A stretch of 64,000 bases of DNA, from positions 1-64,000 of the forward strand of contig OY969554.1 of NCBI GenBank assembly GCA_963700985.1, given 5' to 3'. This document shows positions 27,001 to 33,000 of this stretch, piece after piece. The DNA is from an uncultured Chlamydiales bacterium. Lineage in GTDB: Bacteria > Chlamydiota > Chlamydiia > Chlamydiales > Rhabdochlamydiaceae. The position numbers were made by a program. The first letter of the stretch is position 1. Every line of letters begins with the position of its first letter.

Positions 27001-30000
27001 GCTGAAAAAGCCTAGGTTGCGCATGATCACGCGTTTTTCATCTTCGCTTAAGCCATCAGACTTCCACATCTCGATGTCTTTTCCCATGGGCACTTCGGTA
27101 GGCATCCAATGGTTTGCGCAGCCGTTAAGATAGTGTTCCCATGCCCACTTATACTTAAGAGGCATCAGTTGATTGACGTCTACTGTGTGACAGTTAATCA
27201 GGCGTTTTTCAGTGACTTTAACGCGCTTGTCAGCGCCGAGTTTTTCTAACTCTTCCTTTTCACTTGTTTTAACTTCATCAAAGCTGAGCATAATCTTTCT
27301 CTTTTAAATTTTATTGGCAACTTTCACAGCCTTCTTCCAGGCTGCAGCTCTTAGGAGCTGTGTTTTTTATTTTTTCTTCAACCGGAGCTTGTTCTTCTTC
27401 ACGCTGCAGAAGAATGTTGCTCGAGGCTGATTTATTTTTCATCCAGCGTGGCTGCAGGCCACGTGCATTGATGTCAGTGGTCGATTTTTCGATCTGCGTT
27501 GCCGCAAGTGTGCGTAGATAATAGGTTGTTTTAAGACCTTTGGTCCACGCAAAACGGTACATCTGATCCAATTTTTTTCCGCTTGGCTCAGACATGTAGA
27601 GGTTCAGAGATTGACCCATGTCGATCCACTTTTGACGACGGCTAGCGCACTCGATTACCCAATCAGGCTCGATCTCAAAAGCTGTTAAGAAGAGCTGTTT
27701 AACTTCGGCAGGGATGCGTTCGATTTCAGCGATCGATCCATCGAAATACTTAAGGTCATCGAGCATTGCATTGTCCCAGATTCCCAGGCTTTTCAGACGA
27801 TCGACTAGGAAAGTGTTAACGATTGTAAACTCACCAGAGAGGTTCGATTTAACGAAGAGATGTTTATACATCGGTTCGATCGACTGCGTAATGCCGGTAA
27901 TATTCGAGATGGTGGCGGTTGGTGCAATCGCCATCGTGTTGCTATTGCGCACACCATGTTTTTTAATCGATTCACGCACAGGCGTCCAGTCGAGCGCATG
28001 GCTGTGATCGACATCGAGGAAGCCGCCGCGCTCTTTTTCCAGCAGCGCGATCGTATCGATTGGTAAAAGCCCACGACTCCACTTAGAACCTTGATATGTG
28101 GGGTATGCACCGCGCTCTTGAGCCAGCTCACTTGAAGCCAAGATGGCGTAGTAGGAGATCATTTCCATGCTCGAATCGGCGAATTTGACAGCTTCGTGGC
28201 TGGCATAGCTAACATTGAGCATGTAGAGCGCATCTTGAAAGCCCATCAAGCCTAGACCAATCGGACGGTGACGCTGATTAGCAGTTTTTGCTTCGATGGT
28301 TGGATAGTAGTTGATATCGATCACGTTATCTAGCATGCGCACAGCTGTTTTAATCGTTGAGGCAAGCTTTTGCTGATCGAGCCCTTTCGAGGTCATGTGC
28401 TCAACTAAGTTGATCGAGCCCAAGTTGCACACAGCGGTTTCTTCAGCTGAAGTGTTGAGCAGGATTTCCGTGCAAAGGTTGGAGCTATGCACCACACCCA
28501 TATGATCTTGAGGCGAGCGGATGTTAGAAGGATCTTTGAACGTAACCCATGGGTGACCTGTTTCAAAAAGCATGCTGAGCATTTTGCGCCAGAGTTGCAC
28601 GGCTTCGATCTTTTTGAAGAGCTTGATCTTGCCATCTTCGACCATCTTCTCATATTCGCCGTAACGCTTTTCAAAAGCTTGTCCATAGAGGTCATGCAGA
28701 TCAGGTACATCGCTTGGGCTGAAAAGAGTCCAGATGCCGTTCTCGAAGACGCGCTTCATAAATAGATCGGGAATCCAGTTAGCGGTGTTCATGTCATGCG
28801 TACGTCTGCGTTCATCGCCTGTGTTTTTGCGTAGCTCAAGGAAATCTTCGATGTCGAGGTGCCAAGTTTCTAGGTAAGCGCACATCGCCCCTTTGCGTTT
28901 GCCCCCATTGTGGGCAAGGCCGGCAGTTGTCATGTAGGACTCATCGTTTTCGACTTTGAGGTCATGCACAAAAGCTGTTGGCTTGAGAGGTTTGACTCCT
29001 TTGACACGCGAAAAGATCTGTTTGCCAATCGTTAGCCAGTTGTATTTGGTAAGAGGTTTGCAATCCAGTTTTTGCGCGATTTCTTTGATGGCTGGGATGC
29101 GTAGGTCATAGGCGTAGGTTTCTCCTTTGAACTCTGCAAGCGAGCCATCGGAACGTTTTCCAATGTGATCGTTTTTGCGTACACGTAGCTTACCTGCAGT
29201 TGGAACGCCCAAGCGCAGCATCTGATAGCGAATTCCCTCGATGAGCGGAAGAGAAGTATTTGTAAACGAGATCTCTTTGCCACGAGAGACGTTGCCATCC
29301 GTTTCAAGTAGTCCCTGTAAAAGAGCCAGTGCTTGAGGACGAGGTAAGTGCGCAAAGCGCGCAGCGATGCGTTTATTATGCTCTGCATCGTAGAGATCAT
29401 CATAGCTTAAAGGAAGCGTTGGAGCGCCACTGCCAGTGATGCGGCCTGTCTTCTCATCACGCACAGCTCCACGTCCAGCTGCCCAGTGGATCTGGATATA
29501 AGTGTTTCCACGACCTGTTTCCCAGAAATGGATGTCGCGTGCTGTTAAATAACTACGCACGAATTCAAGATGTTCGTCTGTGGTAGGATTGCCTGAAACA
29601 CCCCACTCAAATCCGTTTTTGGAAAGATGGCCGTCGCCTAAAAGAATTCCATACAAGCGGGCATCTTCTTCATTAAAACCAGGAACGAAGACGACTTCTT
29701 GAGGAATGGTCTGCGCGATGTAGTCTCCTTTTTTAAGTTCGCCTGCATCGATCCACTGACCTTGAACTTTTCCTTTAGAAACCCACTCTAATGTTCGCTC
29801 ATTTGCTTGCTCGAGCGGAATGCCGCGCAGAGCATAGAAAGGGTGTCCTGCAGTTACTGAAAGCGGTTCTAATGAGTGTTTGATATCGATTTGAACCATC
29901 GGTCCGTGCTGGGTGTAGTCGAATTTTTCCGAGACTTCTCGGTAGATTCCACTAATTCCAAGGACGAGGTCGCCAGCATGTACATCGGCAATAGGTCTGA

Positions 30001-33000
30001 TGCCATTTGCTGTGTAGAGGAAAGTCTCTGGGGCAAAGCACTGGTTGACTGCTACTGCTGTATCATTAGCGACTTTGAGGAAAGGAATTACGCCCTGGCT
30101 GCGGCCGTTTGTTCCCTTGATCGTTGCGCCTGTGGCACGCACGTTTGTCCAGTCGTTACCGATACCACCTGCCCATTTGGAGAGCTGCGCGTCATCGGAG
30201 ACAACTTTGAAAATGTGGCCTAAGTCGTCCATTACGGTTGAGAGGTAGCAAGAGCTCAGCTGTGGGTGCAGCGTACCAGAATTAAAGAGTGTTGGTGTGC
30301 TGGAGACAAAGAGGAAACTTGAAAGCACGTCATAGAATTCAATTGCGCGCTCGTTGCGGCGCTCTTTCTCACAAAGCGCAAGACCCATCGCTACGCGCAT
30401 CCAGAAAATCTGCGGTGTTTCGAGTTTTCTCTGCATGTCATGGATGAAATAACGATCGTAGAGTGTCTGCAGACCCAAATAGGCGAATTGATCATCTCTT
30501 TTCAGTTGGATGGCTTTAGCTAGTTTATCGAGGTCAAACTCTAAAAGATCGGCATGCACGCGGTGTAGGCTGATCGCTTGTTTGAGGTAGCTTTTGAAAT
30601 ATTCGCGGTGTGCAGATTCAAGCGTTGGATCGGAAGAGGAGATGCCGAGTGTTTCGCGATAAAGCATGTCCAAAAGTAAGCGAGAAGCCACTTTTGAATA
30701 AGCCGGCTCAACTTCGATTTTAGCTCTGGAAGCTAAGATATTCGCTTGATCGACTTCACTCTCTTTCATGCCTTCGTAGAAGTTGGCAATTGAGCTTTCT
30801 AGGAGCTCTTCAGCAGAGACCTGATCTTCAAGGCCGCGGCATGCGAATTTTAGACGGGCGAGTAAGCCTTTTTCGTTTAAAATTTGCATCGAACCATCGG
30901 CGCGTTGGATGGTGAATTGTCTAAGTGGGATGCCTTCTTCAAGTGTGCGCATTTCACTGTCTGGAAGAGATTGCTCTCCGATAGAAGCGCGGTAGAGGAT
31001 GAACTCTTTGGCGACGTTGAAGTAGCCTTCGCGCATCAGCTGCTGTTCAATTTCATCTTGGATGAGCAGAACAGAGAGGTTGACGCCCGATTTAGCGAGA
31101 GAAGCGGCACGTGCGACAACTTTTTGGGTGAGAAGGTTTACAGCATCGACCACATCTTGCGAGGAGGGGCCTTGCAGATGCTTTGTACGGCGAAACGCGA
31201 GTTCAATTGCAGAGGCGATTTTCATCGGATTGAAGCGCACAAGAACGCCATCTTTGCGTGCAATTTTAAGATTTTCAGGGGAGTCTTCGCGAAGAGCCTT
31301 ATGCTGATCTCGATAGATAATATAGTCACGTGCTATATCGTGATGTTTGCATTTCATGAGGCAGACTTCGACGAGATCTTGGATGCCTTCAACCGAAAGG
31401 GAGGCGCCCTGAGCTGCTAGAATAATAAGTTGAGAGACGACAGAATCTGTCACCTCTTCGACCATGCTAACAACTTCTTTGGGAAGCGTTTCAGCTTTAG
31501 AGATTTTTTTTGTATCTCGGAAGGCGGCTTCTACCGCACGGAAGATTCTTTCCTTTCTAAAAGGGACAATCGATCCATTGCGTTTGACGACCGTAAAACT
31601 TTCTGCGGCCACCGACTTATCGAGTTTTTGCACAGAATTCTTTAAGGTTGAAACGAGGTCTGAAAGTGTAGATTTTACCGATGAAGAGGCCTTGTTTGAC
31701 ATGCGTTGTTCTCCTATAGGATAGAGGCTTGTGTACTAGATCTAGTATTAATTTTCTTTCGTATACACCATATATAGTAGTCTTAATCTTTAAGTGTCTA
31801 GCAAAATGAAGACGCAAAAAAAAATGGTTCACTAACTCTCAAAGATTCAATAACCTACTCTTCATTTTTTAAATGTCGCTGCGATTTTCCTTGCTTGCAA
31901 TTCCTTGAGATTTTTTTCTGTTGTCTTGGCCATTTTGAAACGATCTGGTATGTTTAGGTAAATAGAGCCAGTTGCAAAACTCGCTTCGGAGTCCAAATTC
32001 GATGATTTTGGCGCTGGTTTGGACCCGAATTGGAGTTTTGCAAATGGCTCAATAAAGCATAGAGGTCATTTTGCGTAGAATTTATCTCATCCCCAATATC
32101 ATCACGGCGTTTGGGCTCGCCTGCGGTCTCTTTGTAATTTTTAAAGTAAACATGGTTGAGCCCGGATCGGGCACCTATCAAGTTCTTTATGCATCTGTGC
32201 TCCTATTACTAGTGGCAGCTTTTGCAGACTATGTCGACGGTGCGGTGGCACGTGCTTTTCGTGCCGAGAGTGAATTTGGTTTTATGTTCGATTCACTGGC
32301 GGATGCCGTCTCTTTTGGTGTGGCGCCTTCAGTGCTGCTGCTTAAAAGTCTTTCTTTGGAACAGGGAACTGGCCTCTCCTTTTTTGCTGTAACAGGTGCG
32401 ATGCTCTATTCCATTGGGGGGATTCTGCGCCTCGTGCGCTTTAACGTGCGCACCAATGAGGCAAAAGGCGATGCTGAGATGCGTGAGTCGCAAAAGAAAC
32501 ATTTTACGGGCCTTCCGATTCCTGCCGCTGCTCTTGCCGCAGTTTCAATAAACCTTCTTTTCTCCTCTCCGATGGGAGAAAGGCTTATGCCCATGAGTGG
32601 AGAGATGCGCGCAATCGTATTGAGCTCGCTCATGATTATTTTGGGCTATTTCATGGTTAGCCGTTGGAAGTTCCCAAGTTTAAAGATGCTCCATTTCCGC
32701 GTGCCTTCATTTCAGCTGCTTTTTTTAACCGTCATTTTAGCAATTTTTGTGCTCTATGGAATTCTATACTTCTTCCCAGCTGTGCTGGCATTGATTGTGT
32801 GGGGTTACATCGTCTTGGGCTGGATTCTCTCGATCATCCGGCTGATTGCAGGCAAGAAGTCGAAAACACTTGAGGATTTTGAACCCGAACGCGATGAGCT
32901 AGATTAATCTATGCTAACTGCCTACTTTGGCTTAGGATTTGCTCTTCTATCTGCACTTCTACTCTATGTATATGAGCGGAGCCGCAAACGAGAGGCGCAT

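Follow-up and report, generated by a model that had tools for sequence, protein, structure and literature searches.

The window analysed here is a stretch of 64,000 nucleotides at the start of contig OY969554.1 (GCA_963700985.1), the single contig of a 2.07 Mb, 99% complete genome of an uncultured Chlamydiales bacterium. It carries nrdA, encoding the alpha subunit of a class I ribonucleotide reductase (RNR), with an intact nrdB directly downstream. The nrdA frame is interrupted by an in-frame insert, and the components are arranged as follows.

26215..27291, minus strand: nrdB, the gene for the partner subunit, intact and immediately downstream of nrdA (best PDB match 1syy, 3.6e-184)
27311..31702, minus strand: nrdA precursor ORF for the alpha subunit of a class I RNR, 1463 aa including ATP cones and intein (NCBIfam NF009029, 1547.9 bits; the Pfam match to Ribonuc_red_lgC, 4.1e-185, falls into two stretches)
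30041..31702, minus strand: N-extein, aa 1-554, ending in DTAVAVNQ by direct translation; the Gln at -1 (30041-30043) aligns with yeast Rnr1 Q288
28907..30040, minus strand: intein, 378 aa (residues 555-932), with a LAGLIDADG homing endonuclease nested within a HINT splicing domain (Pfam, AlphaFold, Foldseek)
30038..30040, minus strand: Cys1 (block A), the presumed thioester-forming nucleophile; Cys in 170/171 family members, Ser in 1
29843..29854, minus strand: block B, T63-A-G-H66 (TxxH); His in 171/171, Thr in 165/171
29630..29656, minus strand: LAGLIDADG motif 1, LYGILLGDG, with Asp136; Asp in 162/171
29372..29374, minus strand: Lys223 of the endonuclease domain, invariant (171/171)
29294..29323, minus strand: LAGLIDADG motif 2, with Asp248 (Pfam LAGLIDADG_3); Asp in 161/171
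28907..28969, minus strand: blocks F and G, with Asp360 (28961-28963) and His377-Asn378 (28907-28912), each residue in 171/171; aligns with the PI-PkoII C-terminus
28904..28906, minus strand: Gly+1, codon GGG, the first C-extein residue, in place of the required Cys/Ser/Thr nucleophile; Gly in 120/120 close homologues among the matches listed
27311..28906, minus strand: C-extein, aa 933-1463 and stop, beginning with the remainder of specificity loop 2 (translation, alignment)

Direct translation places the junctions at NQ/CF (30035-30046) and HN/GGK (28898-28912), the slash marking the boundary between extein and intein. In 27 of 30 intein-less loci of relatives, AVNQGGKR[KQ]G runs through this site uninterrupted; the remaining three read DQGGGKRKGS and belong to a different RNR subtype. 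Because these 27 alleles retain the Gly, the +1 residue of the nrdA intein is Gly; with different residues at either end of the insert, the junction position cannot be slid. An earlier note on this DNA had described an in-frame 378-aa HINT plus LAGLIDADG intein in nrdA with Gly at +1; both statements are borne out, the first by the translation, the split RNR barrel and the fold matches, the second by the intein-less relatives.

Profile searches of the nrdA ORF recover the RNR barrel in two stretches, together with LAGLIDADG_3 at 4.9e-8 to 4.2e-9. The Pfam splicing models Hint_2, PT-HINT and Intein_splicing match below their cut-offs only (PT-HINT: E = 0.0019, scoring 18.9 bits where the cut-off is 27.7), and the NCBIfam intein N-terminal and C-terminal models give no match at E <= 1, reproducing the weak or absent matches reported before. 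The poor AlphaFold model recorded at that time (pLDDT 50) is superseded, as a 30-sequence alignment yields a model of the intein with pLDDT 89.2 and pTM 0.87. Foldseek with this model retrieves PI-SceI (6.5e-19), TliVMA (TMq 0.63-0.65), PI-PfuI, PhoVMA and PI-PkoII, with I-DmoI next in the list at about 1e-6. Additionally, the intein profile matches PI-PkoII (7.1e-6), the BIL domain 2lwy (1.2e-5) and gp41-1 (1.2e-4) in the PDB, the 2lwy match being no better than that to PI-PkoII. The insert is evidently a genuine mobile intein of the HINT plus LAGLIDADG type, and both LAGLIDADG motifs retain their acidic residue within a matching fold, as expected of a two-motif, monomeric homing endonuclease.

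The insert has the features of a canonical class 1 intein, namely in-frame insertion at a conserved site, a HINT fold, Cys1, TxxH, the block F Asp and His-Asn, with the exception of the +1 position, where Gly stands in place of Cys, Ser or Thr. Assignment to class 2 (the KlbA type, in which residue 1 is Ala and the +1 nucleophile attacks the N-terminal junction) is excluded by the presence of Cys1 and by the +1 Gly. Class 3 inteins, as described in PMC2807308, lack a nucleophile at residue 1 and carry a Trp-Cys-Thr triplet with its Cys in block F, followed by Ser or Thr at +1; Cys1, Asp360 in block F and the +1 Gly exclude this class as well.

The intein lies inside specificity loop 2 of the reductase, between the positions that align with yeast Q288 and G289. 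This loop contacts both substrate and effector; its Gln reads the base and its Arg holds the phosphates of the substrate. Extein residues on either side of the insertion site do not differ between alleles with and without the intein, and in every genome that carries the intein the nrdA exteins and adjoining nrdB remain intact and highly conserved. Across the whole genome, PF02867 matches this ORF alone, and PF13597 (NrdD) has no match. In 11 relatives with a full-length open-frame copy, all PF02867 matches fall in one gene region each, the intein-bearing gene of one of them (G009) reading in two frames. No second class I/II RNR was found in this genome or in ten relatives with a complete, unbroken intein-bearing gene, and no NrdD in the six genomes checked (this one and five of the intein-bearing relatives). 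The claim that nrdA is the only RNR catalytic gene thus holds here and, by PF02867 and NrdD, in the relatives checked. Some RNR is carried by 59 of 61 relatives, this genome counted. The other two, G041 (96% complete) and G046 (84% complete), have no class I/II or class III RNR match, so RNR is perhaps dispensable in some lineages of this order. Judged from these gene inventories, the present host does appear to need the mature NrdA product.

Gly+1 is a property of the family rather than of this copy. The earlier note had counted Gly+1 in 119 of 120 homologues; the conservation stands and the count does not, as HN/GG is read in all 120 listed, and the supposed exception, P0073, reads GGKRLG and is still Gly+1. 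Gly+1 holds throughout the close homologues, and the wider family is more varied than had been stated. Specifically, 270 scanned proteins gave 172 full-length members, comprising 154 with C...HN/G, 16 with C...HN/S, one with S...HN/G and one odd sequence. Among the more distant inteins at this site there are three clades, which track the host RNR subtype: NQ/GGKR and DQ/GGGK, both Gly+1, and NQ/SGKR, which is Ser+1. Ser+1 accounts for 16 of 52 full-length representatives; in a quick tree, the Ser+1 inteins comprise a main clade of 14, with the DQ/GGGK clade as its sister group, and a separate pair. In NrdAs with several inteins, the other two precede Cys or Thr and conform to the +1 rule.

A substitute nucleophile for Gly+1 appears, on the extein sequences, to be absent from the C-extein. 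Cys+9 occurs in intein-less alleles just as it does in intein-bearing ones, and in some Gly+1 hosts none of the positions from +2 to +12 holds Ser, Thr or Cys (P0127 and P0128 read GGKRNGAFAAYL). No intein residue in the family alignment co-varies with the +1 state (Gly versus Ser), so an adaptation to a new mechanism is not visible. Asp360, His66, His377 and Asn378 are each conserved in 171/171 members and Cys1 in 170/171, against 162/171 and 161/171 for the two endonuclease Asp residues. The junction residues also persist where the endonuclease has decayed or been deleted (L012, L013, L014 and the 179-aa P0267), and dN/dS is about 0.13-0.26. Together these patterns indicate that the splicing chemistry of the intein is under selection. 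The intein itself is patchily distributed, occurring in 14 of 61 related genomes, this one counted.

In canonical splicing, steps 2 and 4 use a +1 Cys, Ser or Thr (Mills, Johnson and Perler 2014, PMC4031507). Since the first C-extein residue here is Gly, the transesterification of step 2 and its branched intermediate are impossible, and NrdA maturation must therefore proceed by an unconventional route. Passages of the same review describe an exception for A-type BIL domains, in which thioester formation and Asn cyclisation are proposed to be followed by aminolysis, that is, attack by the freed amine; the +1 rule and the BIL exception cited in the earlier note are both stated there. That note had offered another splicing route or cleavage only; the disjunction stands, with neither arm singled out by the evidence. 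The best reading, which we regard as moderately probable, is splicing without a +1 side-chain nucleophile, in which Asn cyclisation would free the Gly+1 amine to attack the Cys1 thioester.

By this route, the open frame would be translated into a 1463-aa precursor, in which the HINT fold would juxtapose the two junctions, as the model and fold matches suggest. An N-to-S acyl shift at Cys1 would generate a thioester at Gln554, consistent with the conserved Cys1 and TxxH. Asn378 cyclisation, aided by His377, would then free the C-extein with the alpha-amine of Gly933, the pre-folded RNR barrel presumably keeping it in position. The unhindered Gly amine could attack the thioester directly, as in the proposed A-type BIL route, restoring the native loop NQGGKRKG. 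The freed intein may finally act as an endonuclease that homes to nrdA alleles lacking it, a role to which its intact motifs and patchy distribution point.

The main rival, rather unlikely in our estimation, is that the intein only cleaves: the N-terminal thioester would be hydrolysed, the C-terminus cut by Asn cyclisation, and the NrdA halves would associate non-covalently into an active two-chain RNR. Such cleavage needs the same conserved Cys1, TxxH and His-Asn, and because both outcomes use identical residues, residue conservation cannot tell cleavage from splicing. A naturally split NrdA is said to function; the genes-in-pieces NrdA of Aeromonas phage Aeh1, a two-chain class I alpha subunit, reportedly still works (attributed to Friedrich et al. 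in PNAS, 2007). That split reportedly lies in the genes themselves, with a free-standing endonuclease gene as its cause, and differs in this respect from the intein here, although as a precedent it bears on cleavage only. BIL domains without a nucleophile at +1 likewise give predominantly cleaved products, according to passages of PMC7664689 and PMC4031507, so efficient aminolysis would be unprecedented. Against cleavage only stands the position of the break, within specificity loop 2 between the base-reading Gln and the phosphate-holding Arg, which would leave charged termini in the RNR active site. Moreover, no compensatory change accompanies the intein, the loop and its flanks being identical in intein-bearing and intein-less alleles, and among the alleles viewed, without a dedicated search for split forms, none has a plain stop and start in place of the intein.

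The facts that exclude the canonical route would equally fit ligation by some other route without a +1 side chain, for example with a residue inside the intein as transient acyl acceptor or with the help of a host factor, and Tyr369, Lys223 and Asp360 are invariant with no assigned ligation role. The HINT half, however, contains no conspicuous extra conserved Cys, Ser or Thr, block F has Asp rather than the class 3 Cys, and no helper candidate is evident, which makes this route improbable. It is more improbable still that the intein is never removed, with NrdA either working around the 378-aa insert or inactive and deoxynucleotides obtained otherwise. The two relatives with no RNR match of any class, and the probable host association of these bacteria (suggested by source names such as Rhabdochlamydiaceae), would accommodate such a state. 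It is opposed by the intact, highly conserved exteins and nrdB, by splice residues that stay invariant while the endonuclease decays, by the position of the insert in a loop contacting substrate and effector, and by the retention of some RNR in nearly all relatives. Canonical class 1 splicing after all, through a misplaced junction or removal at the RNA level, can be practically dismissed, as nothing was found in its favour, the junction is fixed by the 27 intein-less alleles and unshiftable, His-Asn directly precedes Gly, or Ser in the Ser+1 clade, in 171/171 members, no Rfam intron occurs in 27000-32000, and a dN/dS well below 1 indicates a translated, selected protein.

Returning to attack by the Gly+1 amine, the proposal that follows, for and against which we hold the case evenly balanced, is that the RNR loop-2 inteins constitute a mechanistic class of their own, the fourth among true inteins: mobile, endonuclease-bearing and ligating efficiently by alpha-amine attack of Gly+1 on the Cys1 thioester. 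If so, hundreds of bacterial lineages and the eukaryote-type DQ/GGGK reductases would rely on such inteins for reductase maturation, the +1 rule would be a habit of known families rather than a requirement of protein splicing, and a scar-free (Gln-Gly) splicing module would already exist in nature.

Like the class 1 LAGLIDADG inteins PI-SceI (Sce VMA), TliVMA, PI-PfuI and PI-PkoII, the nrdA intein combines a two-domain fold with Cys1, TxxH, the block F Asp and His-Asn, and has a patchy distribution, its insertion site being a conserved functional position in an enzyme essential for nucleotide metabolism; unlike them, it has Gly rather than Cys/Ser/Thr at +1. With A-type BIL domains (Clostridium thermocellum BIL, PDB 2lwy) it shares an N-terminal Cys, a C-terminal His-Asn and the lack of a +1 nucleophile, and it is the N-terminal HINT half that matches 2lwy. 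To our knowledge, A-type BIL domains carry no homing endonuclease, whereas the nrdA intein encloses a LAGLIDADG endonuclease at a fixed site in the housekeeping enzyme NrdA. According to passages in reviews, BILs reside in bacterial proteins that are not conserved, within the variable regions of these. A-type BILs yield mainly cleavage products, whereas the nrdA intein presumably must ligate efficiently.

The Ser+1 inteins (NQ/C...VHN/SGKR, database proteins) are ~32-36% identical to the nrdA intein, occupy the same position in loop 2 and keep its conserved residues, and differ in that their host RNR has Ser at +1; because the host supplies this Ser, they could splice canonically. This clade shows that the family also sits before a canonical nucleophile, an observation that counts against Gly+1 aminolysis, as do the lack of an intein residue co-varying with the +1 state and the two relatives with no RNR match. 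Searches of the open-access literature yielded no mention of Gly+1 in an RNR intein, InBase and most subscription literature lying outside their scope. For Methylococcus capsulatus (Bath), the genome paper of 2004 (PMC517821) records an intein in the RNR gene, MCA2543, in passages that liken it to archaeal inteins and do not mention the +1 residue. The NrdA of a Methylococcus sp. (P0109) carries a copy 66% identical to the nrdA intein and reads HN/GGKRKG, and MCA2543 therefore probably belongs to the same family.

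The reading frame at 27311-31702 (minus strand) encodes a class I ribonucleotide reductase (RNR) alpha subunit, NrdA, of 1463 aa (NCBIfam NF009029, 1547.9 bits), whose barrel is split into two Pfam stretches by a segment matching LAGLIDADG_3 (4.9e-8). Hint_2, PT-HINT and Intein_splicing match this insert below threshold, and no intein model of Pfam or NCBIfam reaches threshold on it. Insert and exteins share the same GC content, 0.483. In a search of related genomes with PF02867, the class I/II RNR model, 27 of 30 loci read the uninterrupted AVNQGGKR[KQ]G, the remaining three representing a different RNR subtype with DQGGGKRKGS. 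These 27 intein-less alleles place the insert at exactly residues 555-932, with boundaries that cannot be slid. The features of the locus are as follows (slashes in motifs mark splice junctions; +1 is the first C-extein residue and -1 the last N-extein residue).

28907-30040, minus strand: intein, residues 555-932 of the precursor, junctions set by intein-less relatives
28904-28906, minus strand: +1 codon GGG (Gly), by direct translation
Intein residue 1, minus strand: Cys1, from the translated sequence, as are the next five
Intein residues 63-66, minus strand: block B TxxH, T63-x-x-H66
Within the intein, minus strand: two LAGLIDADG motifs, the first LYGILLGDG
Intein residue 223, minus strand: Lys223
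Intein residue 360, minus strand: block F Asp360
Intein residues 377-378, minus strand: His377-Asn378, the intein C-terminus
26215-27291, minus strand: nrdB, directly downstream of nrdA and intact (best PDB match 1syy, 3.6e-184)

Structurally, a profile of 30 family members matches PI-PkoII (7.1e-6), the Clostridium domain 2lwy (1.2e-5), which is of the bacterial intein-like (BIL) type, and the gp41-1 intein (1.2e-4) among PDB entries. With a 30-member alignment, AlphaFold models the intein at pLDDT 89.2 and pTM 0.87, superseding the poor model of the earlier note. Full-length endonuclease-bearing inteins occupy the top Foldseek ranks (PI-SceI 6.5e-19, TliVMA with TMq 0.63-0.65, PI-PfuI, PhoVMA and PI-PkoII), followed by the free-standing LAGLIDADG enzyme I-DmoI. 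Across 171 aligned family members (the 172 full-length ones minus the database protein P0148), His66, Lys223, Asp360, His377 and Asn378 are each conserved in all 171, Cys1 in 170, and the endonuclease residues Asp136 and Asp248 in 162 and 161, respectively. Its biology makes the insert an intein: it occupies one fixed site of a housekeeping enzyme, encloses a homing endonuclease and is patchily spread.

Mills, Johnson and Perler (2014, PMC4031507) name three intein nucleophiles: residue 1 (Cys or Ser), residue +1 (Cys, Ser or Thr) and the terminal Asn. In the corresponding sections of the reviews, including PMC4031507, the +1 Cys/Ser/Thr is required in every mechanistic class, the only exception being the BILs, which are not mobile and mostly cleave. 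The NrdA insert lacks one defining feature each of inteins and of BILs and thus lies outside classes 1, 2 and 3 as well as outside the BILs; its C-terminal junction resembles that of an A-type BIL. The same junction extends through a large natural family. Of 8000 candidates scored in a search with the intein region only, 916 proteins pass E <= 1e-3, and all 120 listed matches (63-100% identity) read HN/GG. The earlier note had reported Gly+1 in this gene, its relatives and 119 of 120 homologues; the residue stands, extended by the junction reads, the 27 intein-less alleles and the family survey, and the count is corrected, its single exception reading GGKRLG and hence still Gly+1. The source names among the 120 comprise Rhabdochlamydiaceae, Chlamydiota, Gamma- and Betaproteobacteria (Thioalkalivibrio, Methylococcus, Thiothrix, Leptothrix, Rubrivivax, Usitatibacter) and others.

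Among 50%-identity representatives, exhaustive HMMER searching found 1308 hits at E <= 1e-3 and listed 150 of them. Altogether 270 proteins were scanned; 172 span the intein end to end, and the other 98, fragments or partial matches, were left uncounted. The junctions of the full-length members read C...HN/G in 154 of 172, C...HN/S in 16 and S...HN/G in one, the last member being P0148, a free-standing oddity. Among 52 diverse full-length representatives the +1 residue is Gly in 35, Ser in 16 and Ala in one, and -1 is Gln in all except P0148. The 63 inteins placed on a quick maximum-likelihood tree (51 representatives and 12 hand-picked close members, P0148 omitted) form three groups that match the host loop sequence: NQ/GGKR (27 rows, including the intein studied here), NQ/SGKR (14 rows and a separate pair) and DQ/GGGK (20 rows), the last sister to the main Ser+1 clade with SH-aLRT 96. 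These groups follow the host loop, and the +1 label has to change at least twice on the tree; the +1 residue therefore tracks the host RNR subtype and is not imposed by the intein. No alignment column co-varies with +1 Gly versus Ser at >= 85% in both groups.

The intein retains all residues for the first and third splicing steps and none for the second, which favours an aminolysis resembling that proposed for type A BILs. BILs lack a +1 nucleophile according to PMC4031507, which proposes for type A that a thioester forms, Asn cyclises and the amino group so freed attacks the thioester, with mostly cleavage products resulting; BILs are described in the same way by Beyer et al. (2020, PMC7664689). 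Applied to the open-frame precursor with its intein fold, the sequence of events would be thioester formation, Asn cyclisation and then attack on the thioester by the freed Gly+1 amine. This attack would be eased by the lack of hindrance at the Gly-Gly that opens the C-extein, and the two barrel halves would hold the freed C-extein in place. The open frame, fold, residues and selection are direct observations; the chemical steps of the favoured splicing route are deduced from them.

The chief competing reading is that the intein cleaves but does not ligate, which would leave a two-chain enzyme. A split yet functional NrdA is reportedly on record, described by Friedrich in 2007, but intein-bearing and intein-less alleles do not differ in the loop or its flanks. 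The earlier note's pairing of unconventional splicing with cleavage only is supported as a disjunction, aminolytic ligation being the favoured arm. A substitute nucleophile downstream in the C-extein is ruled out: the candidate, Cys+9, also occurs in intein-less alleles and is missing in the Gly+1 carriers P0015 (GAVFG), P0127 and P0128 (GGKRNGAFAAYL), so no such nucleophile is conserved. A shifted or mis-assigned junction is ruled out by the 27 intein-less alleles, and removal of the insert at the RNA level is rejected because Rfam shows no intron in 27000-32000. None of 4 sequencing runs from 2 studies was listed as RNA.

Inteins elsewhere in the same proteins provide an internal control. 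Two or three inteins occur in the NrdAs P0038 (2297 aa) and P0057, P0085, P0088, P0111 and P0118 (about 1700 aa), and in such multi-intein NrdAs those outside loop 2 obey the +1 rule. Specifically, P0038 carries a further intein, LSS/C...AHN/C, before the LSS/C cysteine (+1 Cys), and an NLC/C...KN/T intein at the site NLC/TE with +1 Thr, ending in Lys/Arg-Asn, not His-Asn, is present in 6 of 8 proteins examined.

The insertion point lies between Q288 and G289 of yeast Rnr1, as aligned through an intein-less relative; yeast PDB variants with Ala at 288 and at 293 occur in the same alignments. We take the -1 Gln to be the equivalent of E. coli Q294. According to a preprint legend on E. coli class Ia, two loop-2 residues bind the substrate: Gln294 by a hydrogen bond to the base, Arg298 by contact with the phosphates. 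A 378-aa insert left in place, or a broken chain, would therefore sit at the heart of substrate recognition. The specificity loop in which the rule is broken belongs to an essential enzyme that is often the genome's sole RNR. In the 2.07-Mb genome, a single contig that is 99% complete, searches found neither a second PF02867 gene nor the class III enzyme NrdD, bearing out the earlier claim of a sole RNR gene. PF02867 matches are likewise confined to one gene region in 11 relatives with a full-length open-frame intein copy (G003 and G005, with broken or partial copies only, excluded), and NrdD was not found in any of the 5 of these 11 that were checked. In the relative G009, PF02867 matches three times and the gene is spread over two frames. 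No PF02867 match was obtained in five relatives of the same order; three of them (G038, G040, G047) have NrdD, and G041 and G046, drafts 96% and 84% complete, match neither PF02867 nor NrdD.

Within the same order, 14 of 61 genomes carry the intein, own genome counted, and within the family 12 of 36; G001, of the same genus, is without it. A homing element leaves just such a scattered distribution. In each of the three intein parts, pairwise dN/dS comes to about 0.13-0.26, with usable values for 32-60 of 190 pairs and dS near saturation. The splice residues and Gly+1 are kept where the endonuclease is mutated or partly deleted, namely in the relatives' loci L012, L013 and L014 and the database proteins P0267 (a 179-aa mini version), P0210 and P0135. 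The decay in L012, L013 and L014 (genomes G050, G013 and G029) takes the form of either a substituted LAGLIDADG Asp (LLGAGS, LLGKGH) or a deletion of about 60 residues. No open frame was found in L048 and L050 (match lengths 1135 and 1133 nt). A genome-contig scan gave only 4 loci; the matches from a phage collection also number only 4, all weak and outside RNR genes.

The open-access literature searched holds no statement on a Gly+1 RNR intein; InBase and subscription literature, outside that search, may hold an earlier notice. RNR inteins are mentioned in the Methylococcus genome paper and listed in the Thiomargarita paper, in both cases without junction details in the relevant passages. Supplementary file 2 of the 2016 intein census (PMC4760082), in its relevant entries, counts 0 inteins among 21 species of Chlamydiae and none for Thioalkalivibrio thiocyanodenitrificans. 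An NrdA from the latter species (P0071) carries the loop-2 Gly+1 intein; with the family present in both census-negative groups, it seems to slip past standard intein detection. Ligation by these inteins, if it occurs, would show that nature has efficient protein splicing without the nucleophile and would explain how sites lacking Cys, Ser or Thr can be colonised by an intein; protein engineers would gain a ligation module leaving no Cys/Ser/Thr scar. The mechanism is directly testable.

Several neighbouring observations complete the survey. In the same-genus locus L015 (G003:C2:1380500-1388500), the intein-bearing nrdA and nrdB are both full of frameshifts and stops end to end; such a pattern suggests long-read assembly error and not a pseudogene, and the copy was set aside. 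Loci L017-L019, from three relatives of the same order (genomes G052, G055 and G051), encode a shorter eukaryote-like class Ia NrdA (open frames of 766-783 aa, loop DQGGGKRKGS) replacing the long three-cone type. Three short database proteins, P0233 (335 aa), P0148 (389 aa) and P0143 (425 aa), hold little beyond intein-like sequence and may be free-standing derivatives or gene-calling fragments; P0233 spans exactly CFTPDT to ...VHN, and in P0148, whose context is not RNR, Gly replaces Cys1. The nrdB product has Phe at what is presumably the position of the class Ia radical Tyr, which by analogy suggests an R2 of class Ic (Mn/Fe), the type present in Chlamydia trachomatis.
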